Source of the DNA: Candidatus Methanomethylicia archaeon
Lineage (GTDB): Archaea > Thermoproteota > Methanomethylicia > Culexarchaeales > Culexarchaeaceae
Direction: 5' to 3'
DNA: 64,000 nt
Assembly: GCA_038727515.1 (NCBI GenBank)
Contig: JAVYVS010000001.1
Coordinates: 320,001-384,000 of the forward strand
Shown here: positions 5,283-55,409 of the stretch, in pieces
How positions within the stretch are numbered: position 1 is the first letter of the stretch
How the letters are laid out: each line of letters opens with the position of its first letter
Translations under genes and position numbers: made by a program
The notes under the pieces: model-generated
Seen by the model: only the letters and a program-made list of their open reading frames with translations
The model's database searches: none
Told to the model about the DNA's origin: nothing

Positions 5283-5975
5283 TTATTTAGACTTCTTCTT
5301 TACATCCATGTATATCATTATACAGAGTATCACTATGAATACTGGTATCATGTAGTATGCTGGATAGGATAATAAATATTGCATTCTACCAGTAAATAAT
5401 GTCATCCTGCTGAGTACTGTTCCACCAAATGCACCACCAAATGTGAACATGAGTACATATCTACCAGCTTTAGCTATATATCCCATAGGTTTACGAATAA
5501 CACTTATATCTGTGAAGAAGAAGTATAGGAAAGATGATATAAAGCCTAAGACTATAATTAGATTGTCTATTGGAGTGTATGGTCCAGTGGTTAATGAAAT
5601 TACACTAGCTTTAATCTGTCTAACTATTTGAGCTTCAATAAGTGCTCTCACAGATACACCAGTACCAACACCAACCATCACAGCCATGGAATATCTACTA
5701 ATCCAAGCTTGCTTAACAGTAAATCTTGTGAAAAGCATTATTCCAAGTATTATTGGTATGATAAACCAGTAATTACCTGCAGAAATCCTAGATACACCCT
5801 GATCCAAAATATTCTTCACAGCAAAGGCAACACCATAACCAGCATAAAGACCAACAAAAGTATGTTCAGCAATTCTATACAATATATTTTCCCTATAAAG
5901 TAGACTGTAAATCATCAATGTTAATGCAGCAGCTATTAAACCTGAAATAAGCGAAGCCAATTCCGCAAACTCCAT
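5283..5975 (-). CDS. Four-gene membrane system copy 1, subunit D (multi-pass membrane protein)
   Basis: LYRENxxYRxAE and GRYxxxxxFGxxFG motifs shared with 30230-30895 and 52209-52985; start moved to ATG 5975 (TAATG overlap with upstream stop). Confidence 0.85.
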   Translation of the reverse strand: MEFAELASLISGLIAAALTLMIYSLLYRENILYRIAEHTFVGLYAGYGVAFAVKNILDQGVSRISAGNYWFIIPIILGIMLFTRFTVKQAWISRYSMAVMVGVGTGVSVRALIEAQIVRQIKASVISLTTGPYTPIDNLIIVLGFISSFLYFFFTDISVIRKPMGYIAKAGRYVLMFTFGGAFGGTVLSRMTLFTGRMQYLLSYPAYYMIPVFIVILCIMIYMDVKKKSK

Positions 5976-6781
5976 TATCTCACCCTCCTCCCACCTAACC
6001 AATACTGTAAATTACCAATCACAATCAATATGACAACAAATAAATGCGAAAGTGAAAGAGCATCAGAGGAAGCGCAAGCTTCTCCAGGGCTGGCAATTAA
6101 AACTTCGTATTCAGCTGCAGCTCTAATACCAGCCACCATACCAACCAATTGACCTGCACTAATATATGGCATATATCCAGGGGCATTCATACCCCAAGTC
6201 ATAATTGCCACTGGAACACCATATGGAGTATAGAATTGCCTTATGTAAGGTTCACAATAACCGGTAGCAATAACCAATGCTAGATCCTTAGCAGTCTTAA
6301 CATTCTTCATTAATGGTATTTGCTCTATGGGTGTACCATAAACATCTCTGGGTAGTGCTTTATGAATGTTCTCAGCTATAGCAGCCATAGCAGTTTCATA
6401 ACCAGTAACATAACCAAAATCAACATAATCAACACCATAAGTCTTCTTTTCCAATAAATGAGCAATAGCAGGCTTAATTCTAGTAGCAAAATTTGTTGGA
6501 CCTTCAGCTGTATATAGTGAAATAAGGATTATCTTAACATTTTTACTTAGTAGATGCTTTAGAACTGCAATATTTGAGGGGCCATGTTCAGGCCAACTTG
6601 CAGCTCCAACACCATACTCAAATAATACAACACTACCCGGAGGTAGCGATTCAATTTTATCATACAATGCCTTTACTGGAGCGGTTATTGGTAATGGTAA
6701 TCCTAGAGGTCTAAGTAATGGTGCACCGACTACAATGAATAATAGTAGATACATATACCTTGGGTCAATTTCTTTAACCAT
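5975..6781 (-). CDS. Four-gene membrane system copy 1, subunit C (TM - soluble domain - TM)
   Basis: YGVDYVDFGY and RAAAEYE motifs shared with the other two copies; start moved to ATG 6781 after GGAGGT SD. Confidence 0.85.
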   Translation of the reverse strand: MVKEIDPRYMYLLLFIVVGAPLLRPLGLPLPITAPVKALYDKIESLPPGSVVLFEYGVGAASWPEHGPSNIAVLKHLLSKNVKIILISLYTAEGPTNFATRIKPAIAHLLEKKTYGVDYVDFGYVTGYETAMAAIAENIHKALPRDVYGTPIEQIPLMKNVKTAKDLALVIATGYCEPYIRQFYTPYGVPVAIMTWGMNAPGYMPYISAGQLVGMVAGIRAAAEYEVLIASPGEACASSDALSLSHLFVVILIVIGNLQYWLGGRRVR

Positions 6782-6785
6782 GTTC

Positions 6786-7433
6786 TCAACCTCCACCTCC
6801 AGCTTTAAGCCAAGCACTCTCTCTACCACTAAATGTCCTAATTGCAAGAGCTAGAGCACCTATAGCTGCGCCAACCATTATAGCCCTTTGACCAGCTGTT
6901 ATTGGAACACCCATAGCCCATGCACCCAAGGTAACTATTCCAGGATGTATATAGCCACCTATAGGTGCATTATAGAGTATAACAATTATCCCAGCCACTA
7001 AGAATATAGTTGTCTCAAGATTTCTAGCTCTAAAAGCTCTATATGATGCAGAAGTTATGAAGAAAGCAAGTATAGAGTAGACTGTTGGATCTAATGCAGC
7101 TATTGTCGTCGTATAAAGCCATCTATAACTTGGATGCCCCGTTATTGGTGGAAGTAAACCTAATATTGCCATAAGATACATTAAGAAAAGTGTCCATGCA
7201 CTTAATGCTCTCCTAACAACATCTTTCTCCCTCATAACAACTCGTCCATGAACAATTGTTAAGTTTATAACACCCATAAACATTGCAAATGCTGAAAGAA
7301 TGATAATCCAAACTTGAAGATCTGAAACAGCACTATGTAAAACTGGGATATCGAAAAAGTAATCTGCAAATGCCATAATACCTAGAATTGCAGTTAGGAA
7401 GAGTGGTAATTCACGTCTACGAAGCCAAGACAT
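6786..7433 (-). CDS. Four-gene membrane system copy 1, subunit B (multi-pass membrane protein)
   Basis: YRAFRARN motif; MSWLRRRELPL start matches MSWVRRREIPL of copy 2. Confidence 0.85.
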   Translation of the reverse strand: MSWLRRRELPLFLTAILGIMAFADYFFDIPVLHSAVSDLQVWIIILSAFAMFMGVINLTIVHGRVVMREKDVVRRALSAWTLFLMYLMAILGLLPPITGHPSYRWLYTTTIAALDPTVYSILAFFITSASYRAFRARNLETTIFLVAGIIVILYNAPIGGYIHPGIVTLGAWAMGVPITAGQRAIMVGAAIGALALAIRTFSGRESAWLKAGGGG

Positions 7434-7445
7434 GATACACACCCC

Positions 7446-8231
7446 CTATATACTAAGTAGATCCGTAAACCATTTCCCATACGCCGCTCCTAAAGTTGCT
7501 AAGATTGCTCCAATTATAGCTAACAATGATAGAAACATGCGGCCAAAATCCTCACCCACAATGGTTCCAATCTGCTCTGGATCCTTTGATAAATAGGCGC
7601 TTGCAGCAAAAATCTCTTCACCAATCAATGCATAATCACATACAGCTACGAAGAATGGTATATTATGATAGTTGGCGGTTCCACCAACTTGTACAGCTCC
7701 AGCTTTATATGCATTCTCTAATATCATTAAAGTTTCAGCATAGAATCCTCCAACCATAATAGTTCCAGCAACCTTCTGCCTATGTATTATACCCATGGCT
7801 GTAGTAGCCATTGGAAACTGACTATAAACAAATCTAACCATTTCTGGTCTAAATTTATCAGCTTTACCTTCAGCTTGAAAAGCTAATCTCACATTTTCCA
7901 AAGCCAATGGATAAACATCTTGAACTGCTATGAGCATAATAGGCTCTACATCATACCTTGCAGCTAAAGTAGTAGCATAATTAGTTACTGTAAGCCCAGC
8001 GAGAGTTTGAGCAGTTACACCTTCAATACCTGGAACCATAAGTAATGGTCTACCCATTTCAGCACATCTACCAATAACTTCTTCAATTGCATCAAGTGGA
8101 GCAATCTTACGCAACTTAAATATAGGCTTTCTCCTAGAAAGCCAAAGAGAAGTCAACATGAGAAAACACAGCACTAGAAATATCACAAATTGAGATATTC
8201 TTCCTTGAATTAACAAGAAAATCACTCTCAA
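7446..8231 (-). CDS. Four-gene membrane system copy 1, subunit A (DUF6754-like)
   Basis: LRKIAPLDAIEEVIGRCAEMGRP and PFFVAVCDYALIGEEIFAASAYLSKD; DUF6754 assignment from recalled family consensus. Confidence 0.8.
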   Translation of the reverse strand: MRVIFLLIQGRISQFVIFLVLCFLMLTSLWLSRRKPIFKLRKIAPLDAIEEVIGRCAEMGRPLLMVPGIEGVTAQTLAGLTVTNYATTLAARYDVEPIMLIAVQDVYPLALENVRLAFQAEGKADKFRPEMVRFVYSQFPMATTAMGIIHRQKVAGTIMVGGFYAETLMILENAYKAGAVQVGGTANYHNIPFFVAVCDYALIGEEIFAASAYLSKDPEQIGTIVGEDFGRMFLSLLAIIGAILATLGAAYGKWFTDLLSI

Positions 8232-8271
8232 TAATACTTAAATATACATAACAGATATATAAAAATAACGA

Positions 8272-9840
8272 GTGAAAATGGACTTAAAAAATAAATTAAT
8301 TGAGTTAGACGGAAAAATATTCGATTTTTATGTAAAAAATTTGAAAGAAATGCATGTACCATCCGCAGAAAACATAAACGCAATAATTGAAGAAATAGGA
8401 AAATTAAGGAAAGAAGTACTTGAAGTTAAGGAGTATATATGTGAAGATGATGTGGAAAATATTGTTTGGGCACAACATTTAATTGAATTGCTTGATTGCT
8501 GGGAGATTGGAATTAAAGAAAATACTAGACATCCAAGTAAATATCTCCGTGGAATAGGATTTAGAATCGCCAAAATACTTGAAGATGAAAAAAAGAGTAT
8601 AATTGAGAAAGCAGAAAAGATCAATGGATTATCAACGAAAATTTTAGAGATATTATCAGCAGTATATGAATTATGCCTAAAAGTTAGCGATGAAAAAATT
8701 ATAAGAACGATTAAATGTGCAAATGGATTAAAGAGGGATATAGATAGATACATTAAAATCATTGAAGAAATGATTTTAGAAAAAGAGGAGGAAAGAAAGG
8801 CAAAACAACAAATCATTGAAAAATTAAGTATTATGAGAAATTCAGTGGAAGAATTTGAATTAAAGGTTAAAGGGATCATTGGAGAGAAGAGGGAAATAGT
8901 TGATGAGATACCATATGAAACTCTAATGGAGAAACATTATAGGATACCAATAAAATGGGTATTAAGTTGGTATAAAGAAGAATTGGAGAATGCAAAGAAA
9001 AGATTCCATGAAATGGCAAGTAAATTTGATCCAAATAAAAATCCACTACAAGTATTAAGGGAAAAGATACATATTCCATATGAAAGTCCTGAAGAAATGT
9101 TTAAGGATATGGAGAGATTTCTAGAAATAGCTAAAGAAAATGCTAAAAAGTATTTAGATTTCCCAGATGAAGTTACATGTAAAGTTGTAGGTGTTAAAGA
9201 ATTTGAAAAAGATGTTTATCCAATGGGTCATGCTGGAGGACCAGACCCACTAGAAGGAGGATTAGAAAGCTATGTTGCATTAAACCAATACAATTATAAA
9301 GCATTTTCAAAGGGGTGGCTTATGATGATGGCAATACATGAAGCATATTATGGCCATAATATACATTCAATAAAGATAGGTTTAGCAAACATACCAAAAA
9401 CATTTAAGATAGGTAGTGGAATAGCAACACCAATATCTGAGGGGCTTGCACATAGAGGTGAAGAATTGCTACAACACATATATGGTGATGAAGCATTCCC
9501 ACTACTAGTAGCTTGGAGGAGGATGCAAACAACATTGAGAATATATATTGATATAGGTTTATTCTGTACGAAAACCATAACTCCGAATGATGCAGTTAAA
9601 TTGTATATGGATGTAATGGGATTTGATGAACAAACATCCAGAGGTTTAGTGGAATGGCATTTGGAGAATAGAGGGTATAATGTATGCTATTTCACAGGAT
9701 ATAAAATGATAGAAGAACTACGTAAATATACAAGTATGAGTGAGAAAGATTTTAGTAATACATTGTTCTCAGCTGGATTTATATCAATTAGTAATGCAAA
9801 AAGACTCCTTAAAATAAAGGATAAAATGCCATGGGAATAA
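8272..9840 (+). CDS. DUF885-family putative metallopeptidase
   Basis: HEAYYGH, SEGLAHRGE and C-terminal YFTGYKMIEELR match the DUF885 layout. Confidence 0.7.
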   Translation: MKMDLKNKLIELDGKIFDFYVKNLKEMHVPSAENINAIIEEIGKLRKEVLEVKEYICEDDVENIVWAQHLIELLDCWEIGIKENTRHPSKYLRGIGFRIAKILEDEKKSIIEKAEKINGLSTKILEILSAVYELCLKVSDEKIIRTIKCANGLKRDIDRYIKIIEEMILEKEEERKAKQQIIEKLSIMRNSVEEFELKVKGIIGEKREIVDEIPYETLMEKHYRIPIKWVLSWYKEELENAKKRFHEMASKFDPNKNPLQVLREKIHIPYESPEEMFKDMERFLEIAKENAKKYLDFPDEVTCKVVGVKEFEKDVYPMGHAGGPDPLEGGLESYVALNQYNYKAFSKGWLMMMAIHEAYYGHNIHSIKIGLANIPKTFKIGSGIATPISEGLAHRGEELLQHIYGDEAFPLLVAWRRMQTTLRIYIDIGLFCTKTITPNDAVKLYMDVMGFDEQTSRGLVEWHLENRGYNVCYFTGYKMIEELRKYTSMSEKDFSNTLFSAGFISISNAKRLLKIKDKMPWE

Positions 9841-9845
9841 ATACA

Positions 9846-10385
9846 TCAACTCCTCCTATACATTAAAATAAGCCAATAAAATACTCCAAACATGAACAAT
9901 ATAGAACAAAAAATGTAGATACTGTATGTTAGCTCTGGATGATATAGTGGATTATATGTTAATGGATAGAATGGTTGTATATCATCATATAATGGAGAAT
10001 CAAATAAAACATGCAGCAAAGTTCCGAGAATTCCAGAGTAGAGGAAACAGTTTAACGAACACTCCACATCAAACTCCAACCTAAAAGTTTTGTATAAATC
10101 ATGAAAGCTATTTTCAAGGAAATACATGAAAAACCCTAAAAACAAACCAATAATGAATGCCAATATGAATGTATGCATAATTCCATGAAATGAATACCTT
10201 GAAAAAAGTAAAAAGGAGAAAATATGTTCTAAATCTAAAACAATATTCCCAAGAATGAATGTGGGTATATGTAGACGTTTTTTAAACATTAAACCAAGGA
10301 ATATTCCTGGACCAAGATGAAATGGAGTGAATGGCGTAAAAATCACCATATATATGTCTGGAATAAATAAATTTCTTAAGCTCAA
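9846..10385 (-). CDS. Membrane metal-dependent hydrolase-like protein (DUF4184/YdjM-like)
   Basis: PFTPFHLGP, DLEH, HGIMHTF, HVLFDS motifs and hydrophobic helices. Confidence 0.7.
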   Translation of the reverse strand: MSLRNLFIPDIYMVIFTPFTPFHLGPGIFLGLMFKKRLHIPTFILGNIVLDLEHIFSFLLFSRYSFHGIMHTFILAFIIGLFLGFFMYFLENSFHDLYKTFRLEFDVECSLNCFLYSGILGTLLHVLFDSPLYDDIQPFYPLTYNPLYHPELTYSIYIFCSILFMFGVFYWLILMYRRS

Positions 10386-10443
10386 AAATAGATAAAAGTT
10401 AAGTATATTTGCCAGATTTCAAGTAAAATGATGAGTTTGATAG

Positions 10444-10780
10444 TGGAAAATAGAGGGGAGAATGCTAAACTTTAGACATAGCAGCAACAATTATTATCAT
10501 TAACAAGCAATAATAAATGTTGGGGAAACACATCAAAATATCCCACAATTGATCGGAAGAAAAGCTATATGGATTCACACTAAAACAGGACAAAAGTTTA
10601 TTGGGAAAATAGAGGTTACAATGTATGTTACTTTACAGAATATAAGATGATAGAAGAACTAAGGAAACATACGGACATAAGTGAAAAAGATTTAAGCAAC
10701 ACACTATTTTCAGTTGGATTCATATAAATAAATAATGTTAAAAACTCTTAAGAATAAAGGATAAAATGGTATGGGAATAA
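10444..10780 (+). pseudogene. Chimeric relic: degenerate 5' half of L35Ae gene fused to degenerate 3' end of DUF885 gene
   Basis: 10450-10610 aligns to about 10880-11046 (IEGRMLNFRHSSNNYYH*QAIINVGE...QLIGRKAIWIHTKTGQKFIGK); 10601-10780 aligns to 9661-9840; internal stops and indels. Confidence 0.85.
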
Positions 10781-10869
10781 ACCTTTAACATCATCACATA
10801 GCATCTTTAAAGCGTAAAATTAAAACAAAAATTTAATACTGTAAATCTTATGAATCAATAAGTAGTGTA

Positions 10870-11139
10870 ATGGTGATGACAATGGAGGGTATAGTACTCT
10901 CCATTAAACGTGGAAATAACAAGTATAATCCTAGACAAGTGATATTGAAGGTTGGTGAAGATGCTTCAAAAATATTCCATCAATTAATTGGAAGAAAAGT
11001 TGTTTGGACGCATCCAAAGACAGGTAAAAAATTTATTGGTAAAATAATTAGATTGCATGGTAAAGGAAAATATGTAATAGCATACTTTAGAAAGCAACCT
11101 CCATTTCAATTTATTGGAGAAAGAGTTCAAATAATATAA
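10870..11139 (+). CDS. rpl35ae: 50S ribosomal protein L35Ae (eL33)
   Basis: LIGRKVVW...GKIIRLHGKGKYVIAYFRKQPP..FIG. Confidence 0.85.
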   Translation: MVMTMEGIVLSIKRGNNKYNPRQVILKVGEDASKIFHQLIGRKVVWTHPKTGKKFIGKIIRLHGKGKYVIAYFRKQPPFQFIGERVQII

Positions 11140-11148
11140 GGGCGTAAA

Positions 11149-11322
11149 TTAATGAAAACTTAAAGTAAAAGTCCTATTTTTAACATTCATAAATTCTCTA
11201 CTTAAAAATTCATTTAAAGCTTTAATTATAATTTCACTTCTAGAAGAATATCTCCCTATTCTAACTAGTAAATCTATTTCCTGTACAACATCATTGGGGA
11301 GGGTTATACGTATAGTTTTCAT
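11149..11322 (-). CDS. Ribbon-helix-helix (CopG/Arc/MetJ) DNA-binding protein
   Basis: MKTIRITLP...IDLLV..G.YSSRSEII; start moved to ATG 11322. Confidence 0.8.
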   Translation of the reverse strand: MKTIRITLPNDVVQEIDLLVRIGRYSSRSEIIIKALNEFLSREFMNVKNRTFTLSFH

Positions 11323-11584
11323 AGGATTCACCTGCAAAAAAATGGTATAAGAAACTATATAATTACCCATTTATTGCAAAAATTCAAAATAAATATTGTA
11401 TTTACAACATATAAGTCTTTTGAATTTTATACTCCCATTAAAAATTTACTTAATTGAAACAAAATACCAGTAGTAAATACATGAATATTTCGATGAATGT
11501 TAAATAGTAGTAAATCAATGAATCGATTTATCAGTTTCCAAGACTAAATAAACATATTAAACCATTTAAAAAAAGGTTAAATTA

Positions 11585-30229: not shown

Positions 30230-30895
30230 TTAAGATTTTCTACGTTTATAAACGTCAAACACCACTAGCAATACTGCAACTATCAACAATACGTTTTGAG
30301 GATATTTTGCCAAAAATGCTGCACGTTCAATGGTGAAAATCTGATTAGCATATAATGTTGCACCAAAAGTAGAGCCAAAAGCTAACATCATACTCCACCT
30401 ACCAATCCTAGCTAAACCACCAATCCAACCCTTATGTTCAATGGTAAATGTAAAGTAACTCACTGTAGCAATACAAGCAATTGTAGCAATAATATGATTA
30501 ATCAAATCTATGGTAGACAACCCTGAAAATTTAACACCTAAACCCTCTATTTGCCCTATAATCATAACTGGAATAGCTCTACTCACAGCATAACCAGAAC
30601 CTGCACCAGCAATAGCAGCCATAGCCCATCTACTCAAAAACAAATACTTCTTTGAGTAAATAGTGTATAGAAGTAAACCTAAGATTGCAGGTATTATAAG
30701 CCAAAACTTACCTTGAATTAAAGGTTGTAGCCAAATGCGATTCAAAGTGGATAGAGAAATGTACAATGTATAACCCATGCCAAAACCGACCATAAGAACT
30801 TCAGCAATCCTATAAAATACGTTCTCCCTATATAGTAGACTCCAAGCCATCAAAGTTAATGCACCAACAATAAGTGGAGTAACAAATTCACTCAT
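30230..30895 (-). CDS. Four-gene membrane system copy 2, subunit D
   Basis: SLLYRENVFYRIAE, IGRWSMMLAFGSTFG. Confidence 0.85.
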   Translation of the reverse strand: MSEFVTPLIVGALTLMAWSLLYRENVFYRIAEVLMVGFGMGYTLYISLSTLNRIWLQPLIQGKFWLIIPAILGLLLYTIYSKKYLFLSRWAMAAIAGAGSGYAVSRAIPVMIIGQIEGLGVKFSGLSTIDLINHIIATIACIATVSYFTFTIEHKGWIGGLARIGRWSMMLAFGSTFGATLYANQIFTIERAAFLAKYPQNVLLIVAVLLVVFDVYKRRKS

Positions 30896-30897
30896 AT

Positions 30898-31707
30898 TCA
30901 CCTACCCCCCAACTTCTTCTTTAAATAACCATAATTTGCCACAATAGTCAATATAACACCCAAAGAAACTGTTAGAGATGCAGCATCCATAAAAGCTGTG
31001 GCTTCACCCTTAATACCCATGAGCTGTTCATATTCAGCAGCACCCCTACTACCCCTAATAAGAGAATACAATTGACCAGTATTTATATAGGGCATAACCT
31101 GTGGAACAATATCTGAGGATAAAACGCCAATAATGGTTTCAACTTTTCCGGAAAACTGCCTCATCCATGGATCCACCCAAGTTAGACAAGCGAAAATGTA
31201 CATCTTAAAATCACTAATCGTATTAAAAGCATTCATTATGGGCATATTAACAGTGGGATTACCGTAGTAATCTCTTTCAAACATTTTAGGATTAGATACA
31301 AAAGCAGCCATACCAGTTTCAAAACCTGGAATATAACCTAAAACAACGTAATCAGTACCATAAACAGCACCCTTCAAATCAATTTCTCCAAGAATTCTAT
31401 GAGCAATAGCAGGACCATTGGGATCGAAAGCTATCATAACAATTCTAGCGCGTTTAATGAATAAATGCTGCATAATATCCCTCATAGCTATTCCAAGCTC
31501 AACCCATTCACCTGGAGTAAAATCAAAACTTATCAAGACGAGATCGCCAGGTTTCAAGGATTCAATTGCATAATAAGTCTTATTGGTTAAATAGAATTGT
31601 GGCAATGGTATACCTATAGGTCTAAAAGCTGGTAGAAATGTTAAGAATAATACCACAAGGAAAATTATCTGCCTATCATATTTAGACATAAAGGTGTGCC
31701 AATCCAT
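30898..31707 (-). CDS. Four-gene membrane system copy 2, subunit C
   Basis: YGTDYVVLGY, RGAAEYE; start moved to ATG 31707 after GGGGTGA SD. Confidence 0.85.
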   Translation of the reverse strand: MDWHTFMSKYDRQIIFLVVLFLTFLPAFRPIGIPLPQFYLTNKTYYAIESLKPGDLVLISFDFTPGEWVELGIAMRDIMQHLFIKRARIVMIAFDPNGPAIAHRILGEIDLKGAVYGTDYVVLGYIPGFETGMAAFVSNPKMFERDYYGNPTVNMPIMNAFNTISDFKMYIFACLTWVDPWMRQFSGKVETIIGVLSSDIVPQVMPYINTGQLYSLIRGSRGAAEYEQLMGIKGEATAFMDAASLTVSLGVILTIVANYGYLKKKLGGR

Positions 31708-31711
31708 CCCA

Positions 31712-32326
31712 TCACCCCGTATACGCCCGTTCATAACCCAATAAAACACGAATAGCAATTGCAATAGTCCCCAATGCAACCCCAATTATAACACCTCTAC
31801 TAGCACCCATATTTGGAACGTCAAGTATCCAATTAGCCACAGTTATAGTCTGTGGTATAACAACTTCAAATACTGGTGCATACATCATCATTAAGAATAC
31901 AGCTGCAAATGCAAAGAATGCAGCATCAAGATTCCTAATTCTAAATGCTCGGTATATAGCGGTATAATTGTAGAAGGCTGTAAAACATATTATTGCAATA
32001 GAAAGTGGTGTGTAAATTTCATTATACAAATAATCTGCAAAAGACGGTGCTAGATAATATGATAGAAATAACATTAACATTGCAATGAAGAAAATTATGC
32101 TTACAAAATATCCCTTACGCCTTTGCATGATAATCTTACCATGATACATACATAATGCTATGAGACCTGTACCCAGAGCAAAGGTAGACATTATTAGAAC
32201 CCAATTGGAAAGCTCAGTATTTGCTTCAGCTAGGAATGGTATCTTCAAGTAGTATTGTAGTAGAGAAATGAAAAATGTTACTGCAAATATGATTAATGGG
32301 ATTTCTCTACGTCTAACCCAACTCAA
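31712..32326 (-). CDS. Four-gene membrane system copy 2, subunit B
   Basis: YRAFRIRNLDAA, SRGVIIGVALG. Confidence 0.85.
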   Translation of the reverse strand: MSWVRRREIPLIIFAVTFFISLLQYYLKIPFLAEANTELSNWVLIMSTFALGTGLIALCMYHGKIIMQRRKGYFVSIIFFIAMLMLFLSYYLAPSFADYLYNEIYTPLSIAIICFTAFYNYTAIYRAFRIRNLDAAFFAFAAVFLMMMYAPVFEVVIPQTITVANWILDVPNMGASRGVIIGVALGTIAIAIRVLLGYERAYTG

Positions 32327-32339: not shown

Positions 32340-33098
32340 TTATATCCTAAAAATCTTTGAAAGATCAAATCCCAATCCACCAAGTATGAAAGCTAAAATT
32401 GAAAGTACAATAACTATGGCTCTAACTATATCTGAAGCTATGACACTACCAAGTTGTGGAAGATCTTTTGAAACATATGCACCAGCAACAAGAAGTTCTT
32501 CAGCAATTAAACCATAATCACACAATGAAACAACATATGGTACTTGATACAGCCTTCCGGTTCCACCAACCTGTATTGCACCAGCTCTCGCACCAGCTTC
32601 AGCCAAAATGATAGTCTCCCAATATAAAGCACCTAAAAGGAAGTTTGCAGCAGGCTTCTCACGCTCATAAATACCCATAACAGTAGCCATCAAAGCCGTT
32701 TGAGTGGGAATATACAAAATCTGCTCAGGTTTATAATTCTCTCTAAAAGCAGCTTTAAACATATCTTCAGCTATGGGAACTATAGCTGGAACTGCCGCTA
32801 GATACGTTAATGAAGCTTTATATTCCGCAGCCTTTCTAGCAACATAATTCAATAATGACAAACCAGCCAGTGTTTGAGGCATAACATCACCACTCAAACC
32901 ACCAACACCAGTAGAATAGAATATTGGCCTACCAGTTTCCACAGCTCTACCAATAGCCTCATCAATTGCATCAAGACCTGGAATACGCCTAATCTTTGGA
33001 GGCTTACCACGCTTAACAGTATACCTCATAAAGAAGATGTATAAAGCAAAAGAGGTAATCAATAGAGCAAAACTAAAATATAGTCCCTCTTTAATCAT
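32340..33098 (-). CDS. Four-gene membrane system copy 2, subunit A (DUF6754-like)
   Basis: IRRIPGLDAIDEAIGRAVETGRP, CDYGLIAEELLVAGAYVSKD. Confidence 0.8.
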   Translation of the reverse strand: MIKEGLYFSFALLITSFALYIFFMRYTVKRGKPPKIRRIPGLDAIDEAIGRAVETGRPIFYSTGVGGLSGDVMPQTLAGLSLLNYVARKAAEYKASLTYLAAVPAIVPIAEDMFKAAFRENYKPEQILYIPTQTALMATVMGIYEREKPAANFLLGALYWETIILAEAGARAGAIQVGGTGRLYQVPYVVSLCDYGLIAEELLVAGAYVSKDLPQLGSVIASDIVRAIVIVLSILAFILGGLGFDLSKIFRI

Positions 33099-35219: not shown

Positions 35220-36659
35220 GTGGCGATATATGTGGAAAAAGAAAAGGAGTATGCATTAAATTGGATAGAGAGTAATAGGGATAGGATAATATTGTTAAGT
35301 GATACTGTGTGGGAATATGCGGAATTAGGTTTGAAAGAATTTAAGTCTTCTAAGCTTCTTGCTGATGAACTTGAGAAGCATGGGTTTAAGGTTGAAATGG
35401 ATATTGCAGGTATGCCCACAGCCTTTGTAGCTACATGGGGATCTGGTCAACCTGTTATTGGCGTTATGGGTGAATATGATGCTTTGCCTAATCTTTCACA
35501 GAAGAAGGTTTCATGGAAAGAACCAATAGTTGAAGGGGGACCGGGACATGGATGTGGACATAATATTCATGGTGTTAGTGGGCTTGCAGCTGCAATAGCT
35601 GTTAGGTATGCCATGGAAAGATTTGGTATTAAAGGGACTATTAGGTTTTACGGTTGCCCAGCTGAAGAGAACTTTAGTGGAAAAGTGTTTATGGTTAGAG
35701 ATGGTTATTTTAACAATGTAGATGCTGTTATAAGTCATCATCCAAGTACAATGAATGGAGCAACTCTAATGAGCAGTTTAGCGAACAATTCAGTGAAATT
35801 CCACTTTTATGGTAAATCTTCACATGCTGGAAGTAATCCAGAAGCTGGTAGGAGTGCTTTGGATGCTGTTGAGCTTATGAATGTTGGTGTTAATTATATG
35901 AGGGAGCATGTTATACAGGATGCTAGAATCCACTATATTATTGAGAGAGGTGGAGGCCAACCAAACATTGTCCCTGACTATGCTAGAAGCTGGTATCTAA
36001 TAAGAGCTCCGGAAAGAGAACAAGTTGATCAAATTTATAATTGGATTTTGGATATAGCTAAAGGAGCAGCATTAATGACACAAACACAATACAAAGTAGA
36101 ATTCATAAAGGGGGTATACAATAAAATACCAAATAAAGTGATAGCTGAATTAATAGTTAAGAACATGAGGGAAATAGGTTTACCAAAGTATAGTGAGGAA
36201 GATTTAAAGTTTGCACAGGAAATAGCTAAAACAATACCATTAGAGGCAAAGATAAACCAATTGAGAAATTCGAAAAGACCTGGGTGGGAGAAGCTTATTG
36301 ATAAATTGATTGATGATGAGATTCCAGACCCTTGGGGTGAAGGTGAAGTAAGCCATGGCTCTACAGATGTATCAGACGTAAGTTGGCAAGCACCCACTGT
36401 AGAGTTTAGTACTGCAGCATGGGTTTTGGGGACTCCTGGGCATTCATGGCAGAATGTTGCTCAAAGTGCAGTTGGTTTAGGACATAAATCATTAATATTT
36501 GCAGCAAAAACCATGGCAGCAACAATAATAGACTTAATGATGAAAAATGAAATCTTAGAAAAAGCGAAAAAGGAGCATAAAGATAGACTTAAAGGAAGAA
36601 TATACAAATCTCCACTACCGCCAGATCATAAACCACCATTAGATGCATGGGAGAAATAA
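35220..36659 (+). CDS. M20-family amidohydrolase (AbgB/p-aminobenzoyl-glutamate hydrolase-like), paralogue 1
   Basis: GEYDAL, GHGCGHN, GCPAEE, GRSALDAVELM, GSTDVSDVSW, PGHSWQ. Confidence 0.9.
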   Translation: MAIYVEKEKEYALNWIESNRDRIILLSDTVWEYAELGLKEFKSSKLLADELEKHGFKVEMDIAGMPTAFVATWGSGQPVIGVMGEYDALPNLSQKKVSWKEPIVEGGPGHGCGHNIHGVSGLAAAIAVRYAMERFGIKGTIRFYGCPAEENFSGKVFMVRDGYFNNVDAVISHHPSTMNGATLMSSLANNSVKFHFYGKSSHAGSNPEAGRSALDAVELMNVGVNYMREHVIQDARIHYIIERGGGQPNIVPDYARSWYLIRAPEREQVDQIYNWILDIAKGAALMTQTQYKVEFIKGVYNKIPNKVIAELIVKNMREIGLPKYSEEDLKFAQEIAKTIPLEAKINQLRNSKRPGWEKLIDKLIDDEIPDPWGEGEVSHGSTDVSDVSWQAPTVEFSTAAWVLGTPGHSWQNVAQSAVGLGHKSLIFAAKTMAATIIDLMMKNEILEKAKKEHKDRLKGRIYKSPLPPDHKPPLDAWEK

Positions 36660-41074: not shown

Positions 41075-41079
41075 AATTT

Positions 41080-45965: not shown

Positions 45966-45966
45966 A

Positions 45967-47016: not shown

Positions 47017-47025
47017 GATGGATCA

Positions 47026-48822: not shown

Positions 48823-48885
48823 TAAATAAACCCAAATAATAATCAATACACAATGAAAAATATTTTTTATGTTTAAAATCATAAA

Positions 48886-49185: not shown

Positions 49186-49280
49186 AACAAAATGTGAAAT
49201 TTAATGAAATAAACTTAACCACTAGTAACTAAAAACGAAATCCTATATATTATTAAAGCTAAGATATTGTTGGTGGAAAA

Positions 49281-51098
49281 TTGAATCTAAGTGAAGAAAC
49301 AAAGCAGTTAAGGAATTCCCTAAATCATTTAGTGAGAATATTTGAAAATAGAATAAGGGATATCAGTAGAATATCGTATTATGGAGAATTCATAAGGGAA
49401 TATAGAAGTGAAGGAATATATGAAAAGTTTAAGGAATTCTTTGGAGAAGGAGAATTTAAAATTCTGGGGATAGATGGCTCACTCACACAAGAAAGAAGAA
49501 TTGAAATGTTAATATTCTATGTTTGCGCAGTTGGATTTTATGGTAAACTTACCATTAAAAATTCAGAGGTAAAAATAGATGTTAGTAGAGCAGCTGAAGA
49601 AGCAACAGTAAATCTATCAACAAGCATACCATTATGGCTTGAAGATATATCAAATATAGATCCAAACTTTGAATACATCTTAAACGATTTTGAATTAATA
49701 AAAACAATAGATAGCATACCATACGCGCTAATGACAATGAGTGAACTAAAATTGGCATATGACCAATTAAATTCAGAAGAAGTCAAAGTAGTAGTATTAG
49801 ATAGAATGCTATCTGGAACTTATGGTCCAGCTGCAAGAGACTTTAGAAATTTAGTAAAGAGAAATAAATCGGTGATATGTAAAATAGAAACCCCATATGG
49901 CAATCCAACAATGCTAGACATAAATTTAGCTGGATACATAGGTCCAGGAGGAATTTACATACCATGTAGAGATCCATACCTACCATATTTTGCAATAAAA
50001 AGATTAATTGAAAAAATGCAAAAGGGGGAAGAGAAATTTAAAAAGAGAGATCTACCAAGGATTTTAGATTTAAATGAAAGTTTAACTAAAGAAGCTCTAA
50101 AAGACATATTGAAACTAAATGTTAAGTATAATGGTATCCTATTAAATGATGAAGGAGAATATATAACGTTAAATAAAGATGTAATGAATTATTGGAATAG
50201 AGTATGGTATGCTACAGAAAAACTATTAAACAAGATATATAACTCTAGAGAGAAGCATCCTCTAACAATAGATGAAGAGGAATGGATGACGACACTAGAC
50301 TTAAACACAATAAACCTATACATACTATACTCTATAATAGATAAAGCAGTAAAAGATGGAAAACTATTAATTGGAATAGTTAAGGATACCAATTCAACAG
50401 ATCTCATGAGATCGATGATACCATACATATTAACCAATAAAAATGAGTTAATGCTACCACCAAGATTTAGAAGTGATAAAGCGCTTCTCTCACTTATAAG
50501 CGCTATAAATTATAGAAGTATAAAAGTTCCATGGAGAACAATAGAATATGATTCATTCATGGCAACCATAATACAAGAGGAATTAGATGAAGCATTAGAA
50601 GCAGCATTTAAAGCTGCAAGAGAAATTATTGGAAGAGAGCAATTCACGTTAAAGGGATACTTCCAATTAAGATCATTAAGAGAAGATCCATCGATAAGAA
50701 GCAATATATTTGCATATGATAGACCAATATACCCAAAATATGATTACAAAATGATTAAAAAAGTGGAATGCATACAATTTGGAGAGAAGATATCTGCTGA
50801 ACCAATAATAGAATTGAAAAATGATGAAAACATTATTGGAGATATAATACTACATATATTATACAATTCTGATAATCCAAATGTACTTGAAGAAATGGGC
50901 CATAACCATCTACTATTTCTAGCAGATAAAATGGCTAAGATTATGAGTAGAAATGCTTCAAAAATAATATCTGGATTAACAAGTCTAGATCTTATGACGA
51001 CAACAAAGAAGTATAAGGCATATTTCATAGCTAGAAGATTTAGAGATATGAGGAGTGAAATAGAACATTTAAGAGAAATGAAAGCAAAACAAATCTAA
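49281..51098 (+). CDS. NurA-like nuclease, unusually long
   Basis: GIDGS, MSE, VLDRML, IGIVKD, GHNHLLFLADKMAK follow NurA RNase-H-fold motif order. Confidence 0.75.
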   Translation: MNLSEETKQLRNSLNHLVRIFENRIRDISRISYYGEFIREYRSEGIYEKFKEFFGEGEFKILGIDGSLTQERRIEMLIFYVCAVGFYGKLTIKNSEVKIDVSRAAEEATVNLSTSIPLWLEDISNIDPNFEYILNDFELIKTIDSIPYALMTMSELKLAYDQLNSEEVKVVVLDRMLSGTYGPAARDFRNLVKRNKSVICKIETPYGNPTMLDINLAGYIGPGGIYIPCRDPYLPYFAIKRLIEKMQKGEEKFKKRDLPRILDLNESLTKEALKDILKLNVKYNGILLNDEGEYITLNKDVMNYWNRVWYATEKLLNKIYNSREKHPLTIDEEEWMTTLDLNTINLYILYSIIDKAVKDGKLLIGIVKDTNSTDLMRSMIPYILTNKNELMLPPRFRSDKALLSLISAINYRSIKVPWRTIEYDSFMATIIQEELDEALEAAFKAAREIIGREQFTLKGYFQLRSLREDPSIRSNIFAYDRPIYPKYDYKMIKKVECIQFGEKISAEPIIELKNDENIIGDIILHILYNSDNPNVLEEMGHNHLLFLADKMAKIMSRNASKIISGLTSLDLMTTTKKYKAYFIARRFRDMRSEIEHLREMKAKQI

Positions 51099-51105
51099 GA
51101 AGAAA

Positions 51106-52176
51106 ATGCTATACATACTACATACCACAGGACAATGTAATTTAAACTGTAAATATTGTGGTGGAAGTTTTCCACAAAGATTAGTTCCATGGAGAATAGA
51201 ATATGAAATTGAAGATTTACAAAGATTTATGGAGGGAGACCCAAATCCAATAATAGCATTCTATGGCGGAGAACCACTATTAAACAGTAAATTTATAATG
51301 GAAGTAATGGATGAAATACCAAATGCAAAATATGTTATACAAACAAATGCCACATTAATAGAGAATTTAAAATACGAATACTGGTTGAAATTTGATGCAA
51401 TACTACTTTCCATAGATGGAAGAAGAGAAATTACAGATTATTATAGGGGTAAGGGAGTATATGATAAAGTTATTGAAGCAGGGAGGAAACTTAGAGAAAT
51501 AGGTTATAAAAAGGATTTAATAGCTAGGATGACAGTCACAGAGAAATCGAAAATATATGTAGAAGTAAAACACCTAATATCAACAGGTATTTTTGACCAT
51601 ATACATTGGCAATTAAATGTTATTTGGAGTAGAAAATGGAGGAATTTCAGAGATTGGAGTAAAAACTATGTATATGGAGTGAAAATGTTAATTAAAGAAT
51701 GGTTGAAAAATGCTGAGGAAGGAAGAATAATAGGCATAGCACCAATACTTGGAATATTAAAAACAGCATTACAAGATTTAAAGATTGAAAGTCCACCCTG
51801 CGGTTCAGGTAGAACTTCAATAAGCATATCCAGTAATGGTAAAATATATGCATGCCCAATAGCAGTAGATGCAAAATGGGCTGAAATTGGAGACTTATGG
51901 AACAATAATTGGAAAAATGTAAAAAGGATATCCATAGGTGAACCATGCATAAAATGTGAATACTACAATTATTGTGGTGGAAGATGCCTATATGCATACA
52001 TGGAGAAATTATGGGGTGAAAGGGGATTCAAAGAAATATGCAATATAACAAAGAAAACAATAAAAGAAGTTTTAAAGGTAAAAGAAAAAGTTTTTAAAAA
52101 TATAAGATATGGAGAGATAAATCTATACGATATAATTTACCCAAAATTTAATAATACAATTGAGATAATACCATAA
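51106..52176 (+). CDS. Radical SAM/SPASM protein (AF0577/TIGR04084-like putative peptide-modifying family)
   Basis: CNLNCKYCGGS, FYGGEPL, SPASM cysteines (CGSG, ACP, CxxCxxxxxCGGRC), C-terminal NTIEIIP. Confidence 0.85.
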   Translation: MLYILHTTGQCNLNCKYCGGSFPQRLVPWRIEYEIEDLQRFMEGDPNPIIAFYGGEPLLNSKFIMEVMDEIPNAKYVIQTNATLIENLKYEYWLKFDAILLSIDGRREITDYYRGKGVYDKVIEAGRKLREIGYKKDLIARMTVTEKSKIYVEVKHLISTGIFDHIHWQLNVIWSRKWRNFRDWSKNYVYGVKMLIKEWLKNAEEGRIIGIAPILGILKTALQDLKIESPPCGSGRTSISISSNGKIYACPIAVDAKWAEIGDLWNNNWKNVKRISIGEPCIKCEYYNYCGGRCLYAYMEKLWGERGFKEICNITKKTIKEVLKVKEKVFKNIRYGEINLYDIIYPKFNNTIEIIP

Positions 52177-52208
52177 TTTTATATCAAAAATTTAAAAAAA
52201 GAATAAAT

Positions 52209-52985
52209 TTAATTAGATGCTGGAATTGTTGCTGGTTTCATAGCAGCCTTTTTCTTCTTATAATCAGTGTATATAATGTATAATAAGCCTAAGCAACATA
52301 TTGCAGTCATTATTGGAGCGTAAACACCAGATTCAGGGGTACCTATACCACTAGCCTTCCATGGGAAATATCTACTACCAAGCAATAATTGGAACCTTTG
52401 TATAAGTAGAGATTCTCTACCCATAACTGTATTAGCGAAGGACGCACCTAAAGCGGCTAAAATTACATATCTACCAGCTTTATTTAAATTCTTTAATGGA
52501 CCTTTAAGCTCAGTGGTAAATATGAAGAAGAATATTGCTAGTACAGCACCAAAGAATAATACAAATCTATTAAACGTGGTGAAAGGATCGGCAGCAAACA
52601 ATGATGTACCTATAGCAGCATTTATTTGACCAACGAAATCTGATCTAATAGTACCCCTTAAACCAGTTCCAAGACCATAACCAATACCAATAGCTATAGG
52701 TATCCTGTATAACCAGAAATACTTTCTTGAGAAGAAGAAGTAATAGCATAATCCTATAAGAGCCCATGGAAATACGAAATCCCATCTACCACGATAAACA
52801 ACTGGGTTATATAGGTAATTCTGGAAGAACCATAAGTCGTATGAAACACCATAACCAACACTTATACCAACGTATAAGTGCTCTACAAATCTAAATAGTG
52901 GGTTTTCCCTATATAAGTATGATAGACAACCAAAGCTTACGAATACAGCAGTCCATACGAAAATTAGTTCTTGTAATGTCACCAT
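52209..52985 (-). CDS. Four-gene membrane system copy 3, subunit D
   Basis: SYLYRENPLFRFVEH, AGRYVILAALGASFA; start moved to ATG 52985. Confidence 0.85.
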   Translation of the reverse strand: MVTLQELIFVWTAVFVSFGCLSYLYRENPLFRFVEHLYVGISVGYGVSYDLWFFQNYLYNPVVYRGRWDFVFPWALIGLCYYFFFSRKYFWLYRIPIAIGIGYGLGTGLRGTIRSDFVGQINAAIGTSLFAADPFTTFNRFVLFFGAVLAIFFFIFTTELKGPLKNLNKAGRYVILAALGASFANTVMGRESLLIQRFQLLLGSRYFPWKASGIGTPESGVYAPIMTAICCLGLLYIIYTDYKKKKAAMKPATIPASN

Positions 52986-52989
52986 ACTT

Positions 52990-53877
52990 TCACCCACCTC
53001 CACGAGACTTTTTAGCAAAATAACTTAGATTGCCAAGTATAATACCTACAACAAGTAGATAATGTACTGCTGATTGAGCATTCATCGCTTGTGGTGCACC
53101 AGTTAACCCAAATTCACCAAGTAAAGTTTCATATTCAGCCGCACCCCTAAGACTATTAAGAATACCAATATAACCAATTTCACCCTTCTTACCAGCCTCA
53201 TAGTATGGTAAATACCCGGGAACTGAAACCCCAGGAAGACATGCGGCGAATACTAATGCAGGTGGAAGTTTCTTGGTAGCCCAATATTGTAGGTATGTTT
53301 CAGGTCCAGGGGAACCAGCAGCAAAAGATACAACTAGAGAAGCATACTTTATGCCATCAAACTTTTGTACTAGCTCCAAATTTTCTATGGGATTACCATA
53401 ATAATCCTTAGTCATAGCTTGGGTAATGGTGTCGAAAATTCTTATTATTAGAGCTGTAGTTGCTAGATAACCTAAGTTCACCCAATGCTTTCCATACTCT
53501 TTAGTAATAATGCGAGTTGGATTTTCAGGATCTAAACCAGTATGATCAATACTCTTCCATATTTCATCAGCCATTATCGGACCATCACTCCACATACCCA
53601 AAACAATAATATACAAGGGTCTCTTAACCACATGTCTAAATACAGCAATAGCTTGTGGATGTATCTCTGCGTGAGCACCACCATAATCAAATGATAAAAC
53701 AACTAACGATCCTGCTGGAAGCTTTTCAATATAATTATATAGGCCAAGGGTGTATTCAGTTATACTTAATGGTGATGGAGCAACAATAGCCACGGGTATT
53801 GCTATGCATATCGCGGTTAATAGGTATAGCCATCTAGGATCTAAAGCTTCAAGAAATTCATACCAAGGTCTACTCAA
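52990..53877 (-). CDS. Four-gene membrane system copy 3, subunit C
   Basis: LDPRWLYLL, YGKHWVNLGY, RGAAEYE; probable TTG start 53877 after GGAGGTGA. Confidence 0.85.
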   Translation of the reverse strand: MSRPWYEFLEALDPRWLYLLTAICIAIPVAIVAPSPLSITEYTLGLYNYIEKLPAGSLVVLSFDYGGAHAEIHPQAIAVFRHVVKRPLYIIVLGMWSDGPIMADEIWKSIDHTGLDPENPTRIITKEYGKHWVNLGYLATTALIIRIFDTITQAMTKDYYGNPIENLELVQKFDGIKYASLVVSFAAGSPGPETYLQYWATKKLPPALVFAACLPGVSVPGYLPYYEAGKKGEIGYIGILNSLRGAAEYETLLGEFGLTGAPQAMNAQSAVHYLLVVGIILGNLSYFAKKSRGGG

Positions 53878-53878
53878 T

Positions 53879-54595
53879 CTACTCACCTCCAGCAAGTGTT
53901 GGTCTACGCTCATAAGCAAATATGACTCTAACACCATAAGCAATACTGCCAATAGCCGTACATAAAACAACGCCACGCATAGCAGAAGTATTTATGTAAT
54001 CCATTATCCAAGCTCTAATAGGTTCAAAGAATGGGAATAATGCTGAATTTATTGGTGCATTACCCATTAAGACTAAAAATCCAGTTATTAATAATATTGC
54101 TGCATCAATATTCCTAGCTCTAAAAGCTCTATAACCAGCTGAAATTATGAAAAATCCAAGTAATGCAAACATCATACTACTAGCAACACTACTCACACAC
54201 CAATATAGATAGTTCCAGACGACTGCCGTAGAATCATAAATCCATTTAGGTACCACAGCACCCTTTGGATCTAATGCATATCTACCACCAAGAGTGCTTA
54301 TAATTGCCATGAATGGTATCATAATTAAGACTATAAGGCTAAATTGCCATGGACCACGTCTACGAGAAACATTCCTATAATGAATCCTAAATACATTTAT
54401 TGCACCAATACCAATAGCCATCGCACCCATAGCATTAAAGTAATCTAACATTGTAGTTTCAAGATAGCTGGATGTACTGAAAGTTCCAACTCTAATATCA
54501 ATGTACCACTCAAATACGTAAATTATCCCAAATACAAATGCTAATATTATTGGTATAGACCTTTTATAATCAAGTAATAGTGATTTAAATCCCAT
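53879..54595 (-). CDS. Four-gene membrane system copy 3, subunit B
   Basis: YRAFRARNIDAA, MRGVVLCTAIG. Confidence 0.85.
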   Translation of the reverse strand: MGFKSLLLDYKRSIPIILAFVFGIIYVFEWYIDIRVGTFSTSSYLETTMLDYFNAMGAMAIGIGAINVFRIHYRNVSRRRGPWQFSLIVLIMIPFMAIISTLGGRYALDPKGAVVPKWIYDSTAVVWNYLYWCVSSVASSMMFALLGFFIISAGYRAFRARNIDAAILLITGFLVLMGNAPINSALFPFFEPIRAWIMDYINTSAMRGVVLCTAIGSIAYGVRVIFAYERRPTLAGGE

Positions 54596-54605
54596 CTAGC
54601 TCACC

Positions 54606-55409
54606 TCACTTAGCCAATAAATCTAATATAAACCTACTTCCACTACATATAGCGATAATACCTATCAACAACATAACCAATGCTATATACCTCCCAATAT
54701 CATGAGCAAATAATACACCAATTATTTTTGGATCTCTAGTTATATATGCTGCAGCTGCATAAAGCTCTTCACCGATTAAAGCATAATCACATGCAGCAAC
54801 GAAGAATGGCATTTGAACAGTGGCTGTGGTTCCAGCAATCTGTATTGCACCAATATTATAGCCAGCTTCAGCAAGCTCTAAAGATTCAGCATAGAAATAG
54901 CCTAAGAAGAAGTTTGCTGCAGGCCTCTCCCTCTGGAATATTCCAAGAACACCTGAAGCAAATGCAAATTGCTCACTGGCAATAAACCTAACCATTTCAG
55001 GTTGATACATATCTGCTTTACCTTCAGCTGCATAAGCTTGTTTTACAATACCTTCAGCAGCCATATAAACAGTGTAATACCTATTGGCTACAATTATGGG
55101 GATACCATATCTAGCAGTCTTTCTGGCAACATCTCCAAGTATTGATAGAGCAGCTAAAGTGTTTAAATCACCTATACCATGCATACCTGGAGTAAAGAAT
55201 ACTGGTCTACCCATCTCTGTAGCTCTACCAATAGCTTCATCCACAGCTTCAACAGCAGGAATCTTTCTAACCCTAACTTTTTCCGGTCTACGTTTAGAAA
55301 ATTCTAGTGCAAAAATCGTTAAAGCCCCAAGAATCATCAACATTACGCCTTGTGCCATACGCCCAGATATAACCCTAAACTCTATTTGGGCTAAATCCAG
55401 CAGTATCAT
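54606..55409 (-). CDS. Four-gene membrane system copy 3, subunit A (DUF6754-like)
   Basis: VRKIPAVEAVDEAIGRATEMGRP, PFFVAACDYALIGEELYAAAAYITRD. Confidence 0.8.
   Translation of the reverse strand: MILLDLAQIEFRVISGRMAQGVMLMILGALTIFALEFSKRRPEKVRVRKIPAVEAVDEAIGRATEMGRPVFFTPGMHGIGDLNTLAALSILGDVARKTARYGIPIIVANRYYTVYMAAEGIVKQAYAAEGKADMYQPEMVRFIASEQFAFASGVLGIFQRERPAANFFLGYFYAESLELAEAGYNIGAIQIAGTTATVQMPFFVAACDYALIGEELYAAAAYITRDPKIIGVLFAHDIGRYIALVMLLIGIIAICSGSRFILDLLAK

Follow-up and report, generated by a model that had tools for sequence, protein, structure and literature searches.

The present analysis deals with a membrane system of four subunits, here called A, B, C and D, whose genes lie in a stretch of 64,000 nucleotides from a Candidatus Methanomethylicia archaeon of the family Culexarchaeaceae (contig JAVYVS010000001.1, positions 320,001 to 384,000), referred to below as the window. 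The cysteinyl-tRNA synthetase encoded in this genome shares 74% identity with that of 'Candidatus Culexarchaeum nevadense', which places the archaeon in or close to the Culexarchaeales of the Methanomethylicia (Thermoproteota). The lists of open reading frames (ORFs) and their translations revealed three clusters of four co-oriented genes, all on the minus strand and all in the order A-B-C-D, as had been reported in a first-pass annotation of this DNA. In copy 1, subunit A (7446-8231, 261 residues) matches the Pfam family PF20539, DUF6754 (E 3.8e-69, 233 bits). It is accompanied by B (6786-7433, 215 residues), predicted to have six transmembrane (TM) helices with both termini inside, by C (5975-6781, 268 residues), predicted to consist of a TM helix, an extracytoplasmic alpha/beta domain and a second TM helix, and by D (5283-5975, 230 residues), a polytopic membrane protein carrying the motif LYRENxxYRxAEH. 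The AlphaFold2 (AF2) models of A and C from this copy have confidence scores (pLDDT) of 92.8 and 95.7, respectively. Copy 2 comprises A (32340-33098, 252 residues; DUF6754, E 1.2e-61, 209 bits; 38-42% identical to the A proteins of copies 1 and 3), B (31712-32326, 204 residues; 32% identity to B of copy 1, E 7e-37), C (30898-31707, 269 residues from the ATG after the site GGGGTGATGG; 35% identity to C of copy 1, E 4e-47) and D (30230-30901, 223 residues from a GTG, with an ATG two codons inward; 33% identity to D of copy 1, E 4e-33). Copy 3 comprises A (54606-55409, 267 residues; DUF6754, E 1.9e-91, 306 bits, the highest-scoring of the three A proteins against the Pfam model), B (53879-54595, 238 residues, whose outer TM3-TM4 loop is longer), C (52990-53877, 295 residues from a TTG after the site GGAGGTGAG) and D (52209-52985, 258 residues). 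For B, C and D, the starts were reset to codons preceded by strong Shine-Dalgarno sites of the GGAGG/GGGGTG type. The gaps within the operons range from -4 to 13 nt, and a ribosome-binding site of this type is present at each internal junction.

All-against-all BLASTP of the twelve window proteins confirmed the clusters and gave identities of 38-42% among the A proteins (E 1e-53 to 1e-64), 28-32% among B (E 1e-20 to 1e-37), 27-35% among C (E 1e-21 to 1e-47) and 29-33% among D (E 1e-20 to 1e-33), with no significant match between one family and another. The likeness of the three copies far exceeds chance. All three A proteins match PF20539 from end to end (E 1e-62 to 2e-92) and clear its 27-bit gathering score by a wide margin. 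The other three subunits, in all copies, match no Pfam or NCBIfam family and no sequence in the PDB. Thus the proposed resemblance of A to DUF6754 was right, and the three subunits that the first-pass annotation could not name have no confident match to any characterised transporter or enzyme family in the profile searches that it had suggested. In alignments of 67-78 homologues, the most conserved columns proved to be the motifs that it had quoted from these well diverged copies, which are 27-42% identical: DEAxGRxxExGRP, CDYxLIGEE and AY in A, YRAFRAR in B, YGxDYVxLGY and GAAEYE in C, and (Y/F)LY(R/K)(E/D)NP.Y..AEH in D. Searches of Pfam, NCBIfam and PDB profiles also agreed with it that the operons contain no recognisable ABC, MFS, TRAP or ECF component, no binding protein and no redox motif.

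By its predicted anatomy, a unit exposes soluble domains on either side of the membrane, and its four subunits together have about 16 TM helices. Subunit A consists of a TM helix, a domain of about 190 residues and a second TM helix, with a cluster of basic residues after TM1; many bacterial A proteins are extended ahead of TM1 by a signal peptide plus an FN3-like domain some 100 residues long. Because of this basic stretch after TM1 and the exported parts before it, the DUF6754 domain must be cytoplasmic. Subunit C is similarly laid out, with a domain of about 215 residues between two TM helices, and its alpha/beta domain should lie outside, since basic residues are found at both termini. Conserved acidic, histidine and asparagine residues occur in this outer domain and in the last helix of C. 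Subunit B has six hydrophobic segments with both ends predicted inside, and its inner face carries the YRAFRARN motif (after TM4) and a C-terminal G-x-E-R. The outer loop of B between TM3 and TM4 is a hotspot of insertions, seen in homologues of 260-630 residues (for example P0018 and P0033); the insertions include FG-GAP/VCBS repeats in Zixibacteria, a long acidic helical region in Planctomycetota and many others of different sizes. Subunit D is polytopic as well, with a less clearly resolved topology, and both B and D have conserved charged residues in or near the membrane.

The A model contains a six-stranded Rossmann-like domain in which the C-terminal strand ends, where folds of this kind usually bind their ligands, carry the invariant Gly, Thr, Glu and Asp residues. 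Foldseek returned no clear match for the A and C models (TM-scores 0.2-0.35). With VIA-align, the matches of A at Z about 10 are short-chain dehydrogenases, RCK/KTN domains, GT-B halves and SIS domains, and those of C are MT0777 (Z 9.5) and single lobes of periplasmic sugar-binding proteins (Z about 8); GT-B half-domains appear among the results for both soluble domains. For the RCK/KTN (TrkA-N) domains, the figures are Z 10.0 and a root mean square deviation (rmsd) of 4.3 Å over 127 residues for 1lss, and Z 9.9 and 3.6 Å over 131 residues for 4gx0. We regard this match as generically Rossmann-like, because short-chain dehydrogenases, GT-B halves and SIS domains score alike; moreover, A has neither a TrkA_N match in Pfam nor a GxGxxG motif. 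A and C share a broad fold class, both matching 1kjn at Z 9.5. An origin of A and C, or of B and D, by internal duplication was considered and rejected, as it is unsupported by sequence (hhalign probabilities of 2% for A against C and 7% for B against D). The weak Pfam tallies of individual members, TMD0_ABC (14 of 78) and 7TMR-DISM (11 of 78) for B and DUF3704 (19 of 67) for D, lie far below the cut-offs and were discarded as noise. One metagenomic protein of 545 residues, P0057, joins the C-terminal half of B to a sodium:solute symporter (PF00474); present in one contig only, it is probably a chimera or a gene-calling artefact, and the fusion was therefore set aside. In complex prediction, the A+B+C+D set (with D as the partner) scored 0.77-0.79, controls in which the partner was replaced 0.00 and a control in which C was replaced 0.78; we did not use these values as evidence in either direction.

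The window holds only part of the set. The first-pass annotation had counted three copies, which is correct for the window, but a tblastn search of the genome assembly (1.59 Mb, 33% G+C, 93.6% complete) found eight operons, all with the order A-B-C-D and none in a tandem array. In the eighth (L023), B, C and D are intact, and an in-frame TAA splits subunit A (L023:10164-10979; G000:C1:633963-634778, outside the window) into ORFs of 149 and 101 residues, which may reflect either a pseudogene or a mistake in the assembly. Over its full length the window is collinear, in inverted orientation, with positions 994000-1064000 of a genome from another genus of the same family (G003:C1:994000-1064000), where the orthologues of the twelve proteins are 82-92% identical and most flanking genes 58-90%. 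Two genomes of a sister family have units in common with the window, but not the synteny. Given the synteny with the second genus and the high identity of the orthologues, the three copies are paralogues of old date and strongly constrained. A tree of the concatenated ABCD proteins, midpoint-rooted and with bacterial sampling limited to the best 80 loci, groups the seven intact archaeal copies, on long branches, in a single clade (support 0.96-0.97), which adjoins Bacillota-type units lacking the FN3 extension. This topology would fit a single acquisition of the archaeal units, followed by expansion.

Conservation among the paralogues of this genome is unequal across the membrane. Mean pairwise identity is 0.47 for the cytoplasmic domain of A and 0.42 for the inner loops of B, against 0.33 for the outer domain of C and 0.26 for the outer loops of B; the cytoplasmic parts are thus the most conserved and the outer parts the least, as would be expected if the units share an inner partner and differ in their outer ligands. 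Pairwise identities are also correlated from one subunit to another (r about 0.9), but we discarded this as a sign of co-evolution, since a single recent duplicate pair with 73% identity drives the value of r.

The system extends far beyond this archaeon. Within the same order, DUF6754 is found in all genomes searched but one, which is 45% complete, with 2-8 copies each; none of the 29 genomes from other orders of the class has it, and among 201 sampled genomes of the phylum only two further lineages have it. In bacteria we counted more than 547 DUF6754 loci, in WOR-3, Fermentibacteria, Cloacimonadota, Zixibacteria, Eisenbacteria, Poribacteria, Brocadiaceae, Bacillota, Armatimonadota, Nitrospirota and others. 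The best 80 of these loci, from more than 15 phyla and with 6-kb flanks, were searched with hidden Markov models (HMMs) built solely from the paralogues of this genome. The four genes were found in the order A-B-C-D as 56 single units and in tandem arrays of two or three, and almost all exceptions are contig ends. This is the neighbourhood survey that the first-pass annotation had proposed, and it shows the linkage kept in other genomes. A profile of the B family retrieved 3267 clusters at 50% identity from 1.84 billion representatives, and in one class of Bacillota the family is present in 59 of 151 genomes and reaches as many as 16 copies per genome, at genome sizes of 1.4-2.3 Mb. Among the bacteria with B homologues are the planctomycete Thalassoroseus pseudoceratinae and Bacillota related to Symbiobacterium. 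The system spans archaea, monoderm bacteria and diderm bacteria, and a literature search on the name DUF6754 returned no paper that mentions it. The ABCD system is real, ancient, widespread and unstudied.

The first-pass annotation had also stated that no copy includes an ATPase. This holds inside the operons but not for the genome, which contains exactly one gene of the family PF13941 (G000:C1:553923-555782; L162:7924-9783), about 170 kb beyond the window. Its product, a GlmL-like protein of 619 residues, gives a full-length match to the family (E 1e-121). The gene is preceded on the same strand by one for a 148-residue protein with two hydrophobic segments, and downstream of it come a gene for a 384-residue partner protein with weak matches to the RnfC_N barrel-hybrid and KOW domains and then one for an M55 D-aminopeptidase. 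Among 41 relatives, PF13941 exceeds its cut-off, always as a single copy, in 10 of the 11 genomes that carry DUF6754 (the exception is 57% complete) and in none of the 29 genomes of other orders. In a second archaeal lineage (G148), the genes for the GlmL-like protein and the partner are adjacent. All five bacterial carriers checked have a GlmL-like gene, which is single copy and far from the units in the chromosomes of WOR-3 and Poribacteria, and in the Bacillota sample the partner occurs in 59 of 59 carriers versus 8 of 92 non-carriers, three of these eight being weak. Every near-complete carrier genome searched has the module. Moreover, 18 of the 80 bacterial loci have a GlmL-like gene in the 6-kb flank, always on the strand of the units, and in nine of these 18 the order is GlmL-partner-A-B-C-D. 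The archaeal ATPase is 49-61% identical to the bacterial ones, and the phosphate and adenosine motifs of the ASKHA fold are invariant, as is the aspartate of DxGSTT(T)K.

With the GlmL/MutL and Or-4 accessory proteins of B12-dependent mutases, the ATPase shares the full-length PF13941 match and the ASKHA nucleotide motifs; it differs from them in an extra C-terminal region of about 130 residues, in having no mutase neighbour and in travelling with the partner protein and ABCD units. An identity as GlmL (NF040745) or Or-4 (NF040744) was rejected, as the scores fall far below the curated cut-offs (209.5 versus 475 bits and 207.8 versus 600 bits, respectively; for TIGR01319, 143 versus 204). The operons are free of an ATPase and the system very probably is not. 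In this genome the ratio of units to motor is eight to one. The first-pass annotation is upheld on the four-gene unit and its paralogy, and falls short on the number of copies and on the source of energy.

The analysis establishes the genes and their order, their paralogy and wide conservation, their predicted topology and folds, and the fact that they co-occur, and in bacteria share operons, with the ATPase module; how the units assemble, how they are coupled to ATP, in which direction they transport and what they carry is inferred. A conserved four-protein unit with domains on both faces, many paralogues, variable outer decorations and one conserved ATPase module together suggest modular uptake with a shared motor. 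One unit would consist of the polytopic subunits B and D, the bitopic subunit A with its Rossmann-like domain inside and the bitopic subunit C with its alpha/beta domain outside, and the eight diverged units would be substrate-specific modules of a single system. Nutrients would be captured by C and the outer loops of B, together with the outer part of A in diderm bacteria, and would cross the membrane along a path formed by B and D. The conserved cytoplasmic face, that is the A domain and the basic loops of B, would dock the shared module, and import would be driven by the single GlmL-like actin-fold (ASKHA) ATPase with its barrel-hybrid/KOW partner and the small protein with two TM helices. 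That the ABCD units are substrate-specific membrane modules served by one shared ATPase module, following a logic like that of ECF transporters with unrelated parts, is the reading we favour among those considered, and it may well turn out to be right, although we would stop just short of calling it probable. That they form, together with the GlmL-like protein, its partner and the small membrane protein, an undescribed class of primary active transporters in which an actin-fold ATPase energises interchangeable units is put forward more tentatively, as something that might be so. The copy numbers (2-8 in the archaeal order, up to 16 in Bacillota), the diverged paralogues and the 3267 clusters of B are typical of transporters. 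Uptake is supported by the catabolic neighbours and by the presence of only four genes for binding-protein-dependent (BPD-type) ABC permeases in a genome that also has about 23 ABC ATPase domains, roughly 18 MFS genes and a separate EcfT-like gene.

With regard to substrates, the window copies might handle peptide-, acyl-amino-acid- or glycoside-type compounds. Near copy 1 are genes for a GH4 glycosidase, a 2-hydroxyacid dehydrogenase and a DUF885 protein. Lying 55 nt downstream of its D gene, on the same strand, is the gene for a 553-residue protein (3566-5227, minus strand; 73% identical in G003) that belongs to no Pfam or NCBIfam family and weakly matches the catalytic domains of alpha-amylases (2wc7, E 9e-4). 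This protein may be a glycosidase of no established class whose gene is transcribed together with copy 1. Next to copy 2, in head-to-head orientation, is a gene for an Amidohydro_3 protein (D-aminoacylase-like), followed by one for an M20 peptidase; M28, creatininase and Amidohydro_2 genes flank this copy as well. A similar arrangement recurs in a Bacillota genome that is unrelated and has at least 14 units: one of them is head to head with M20 and Amidohydro_3 genes and another precedes an Amidohydro_3 gene, the proteins being 32-36% identical to those of the window. Copy 3 adjoins radical-SAM genes and genes of no known family.

Several points weigh against the transporter reading and should be set out together. 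None of the subunits has sequence likeness to a known transporter, the PDB sequence-profile searches with all four families gave nothing meaningful, and the best structural matches (Z 10.3 for A and 9.5 for C) are all generic Rossmann-like folds at a level of Z that is common background. The known role of GlmL-family proteins is to reactivate B12 mutases as chaperones, not to drive transport (PMC4682846). Co-occurrence among related genomes is not independent, and the archaeal pattern may amount to one event. As to the hydrolases near the units, which the first-pass annotation had read as a clue, they are present around the window copies but are not a trait of the family, as the genes flanking the 80 bacterial loci are heterogeneous (160 Pfam families among 127 neighbours). 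With neighbours so mixed, the hydrolases inform on individual paralogues at most. The recurrence of Amidohydro_3 and M20 concerns non-orthologous units and common enzyme families, so that chance could account for it. An Rfam search found no riboswitch in the window or in 12 bacterial loci, and none controls any of the units examined. In one Bacillota genome (G343), a thiamine pyrophosphate (TPP) riboswitch (62.7 bits; L191:9093-9192) lies between the D gene of a unit and thiD-thiM-thiE; the thiamine genes are under TPP control, and the unit lies outside the thiamine regulon. Accordingly, adjacency to ThiD was rejected as evidence on substrates; the L023 copy of our own genome is also near ThiD, in tail-to-tail orientation.

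Other explanations were weighed against these data. The ABCD unit might be a secondary transporter that uses an ion gradient, the GlmL-like module being unrelated or only regulatory. The lack of an ATPase in any of the eight operons, the roughly 60 of 80 bacterial loci without a GlmL-like gene within 6 kb, the RCK/KTN-type regulatory domains among the best fold matches of A (Z about 10) and the conserved charged residues in or near the membrane of B and D would all suit such a carrier. However, the module co-occurs almost perfectly with the units in two separate clades, direct GlmL-partner-ABCD operons exist, and the strong conservation of the cytoplasmic domain of A among paralogues suggests a common partner. 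Because the module co-occurs and is operon-linked in many bacteria, an ATPase-free carrier is the less likely reading, and we consider it improbable. The units could instead form a machine for something other than import. It might use ATP to handle, modify or export glycans, lipids or proteins of the envelope, or work as a reactivase-like chaperone on enzymes bound to the membrane, with the paralogues serving different clients. This would agree with the chaperone-like reactivases among the relatives of GlmL (PMC4682846), with the FN3-like and FG-GAP/VCBS outer domains of bacterial members, which are typical of macromolecule binders, with the GT-B half-domain matches of both soluble domains, and with the conserved acidic, histidine and asparagine residues of C. 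The neighbouring genes speak otherwise, as they encode catabolic enzymes and not proteins of envelope synthesis or secretion; 8-16 copies in small genomes are better suited to families of substrates, and the system occurs in archaea, monoderms and diderms, whose envelopes differ. Such a machine seems to us unlikely, though it deserves to be kept in mind.

Two further proposals deserve mention. Many diverged outer faces combined with one shared inner module would also be expected of sensors or receptors whose outer domains bind ligands and signal through the A domain to a shared ASKHA module, and the weak 7TMR-DISM matches in 11 of 78 B members point the same way. These matches are far below curated cut-offs, however, no kinase, cyclase, helix-turn-helix or chemotaxis output domain is found in or beside the units, and four subunits with about 16 TM helices exceed what sensing needs, which makes this highly improbable. 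The other proposal, an energy-converting module, arises from a unit outside the window (L025:5982-10969; G000:C2:283981-288968), which lies directly behind genes for BCCP and an OadA-like carboxyltransferase on the same strand, an adjacency kept in five other genomes of the order. In the 93.6%-complete genome, searches found neither OAD_beta (PF03977), which was not matched by B or D either, nor biotin carboxylase, so that the carboxyltransferase and BCCP would be a pair lacking both usual partners; some units might therefore partner soluble enzymes and, for example, replace the missing decarboxylase beta subunit. Yet this context occurs at only one of the eight units, the others lie near hydrolases and unrelated enzymes, and import of biotin or of an acid substrate would fit equally well, as BioY was not found in the genome either. 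Hence we give this explanation very little probability.

How do the ABCD units, taken as substrate-specific modules with a shared ATPase, compare with known systems? The Pfam entry for DUF6754 (PF20539) covers one subunit and gives no function; B, C, D, the fixed gene order and the link to the ATPase are in no curated family. The closest parallel in organisation is the group-II ECF transporters (EcfA-A'-T with scattered S components), in which one ATPase module also serves many diverged, substrate-specific units located beside metabolic genes. The ATPase there is of the ABC type, whereas an actin-fold protein is found here, the present units consist of four proteins with soluble domains on both faces, and no sequence relation was found: neither B nor D matches the EcfT (CbiQ) or S-component families in Pfam or NCBIfam. 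Binding-protein-dependent ABC importers have a similar layout, with one alpha/beta domain outside and one in the cytoplasm, in addition to two polytopic proteins. They differ in that the ABCD proteins contain no Walker A motif or ABC signature and in that C is one-lobed instead of two-lobed and has a TM helix at each end. None of the 12 window proteins matches ABC_tran, BPD_transp or ABC2, and B homologues give only the sub-threshold TMD0_ABC hits mentioned above. For MFS, TRAP, TTT and other secondary carriers, Pfam and NCBIfam gave no match at E <= 0.1, and the four profiles matched no PDB sequence. The published Culexarchaeia genome study goes no further than a general mention of "peptide and amino acid transporters" (PMC9723716).

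If the shared-motor model is correct, a whole class of membrane machines has been missed, one that is common in uncultured phyla of the FCB group, in Bacillota and Planctomycetota and in some archaea. The units may then be the main route of nutrient uptake in their carriers, and metabolic reconstructions of these lineages would change. An actin-fold ATPase that drives transport would represent a new principle of energy coupling, and the archaeon would be its minimal example, with eight units and one motor in 1.6 Mb. Its genome offers a clean test case: it has eight units and one motor, lacks tandem arrays and shares full synteny with a genome of a second genus. Should the units do something other than transport, this is still a strictly conserved membrane system of six or seven proteins of which no member has been studied.

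Some additional observations were made in the window. Copy 3 is flanked by two genes whose products match no Pfam or NCBIfam family, one for a 605-residue protein (49281-51098, plus strand) that is 71% identical in G003 and one for a 154-residue protein (55534-55998, minus strand). Two M20-family peptidase genes on the plus strand, 25 kb apart (35220-36659 and 60331-61755), are paralogues with 67% identity. Finally, a gene on the plus strand at 56851-57909 encodes a tubulin/FtsZ-family GTPase of 352 residues which, with 92% identity to its counterpart in G003, is among the best-conserved genes of the window.

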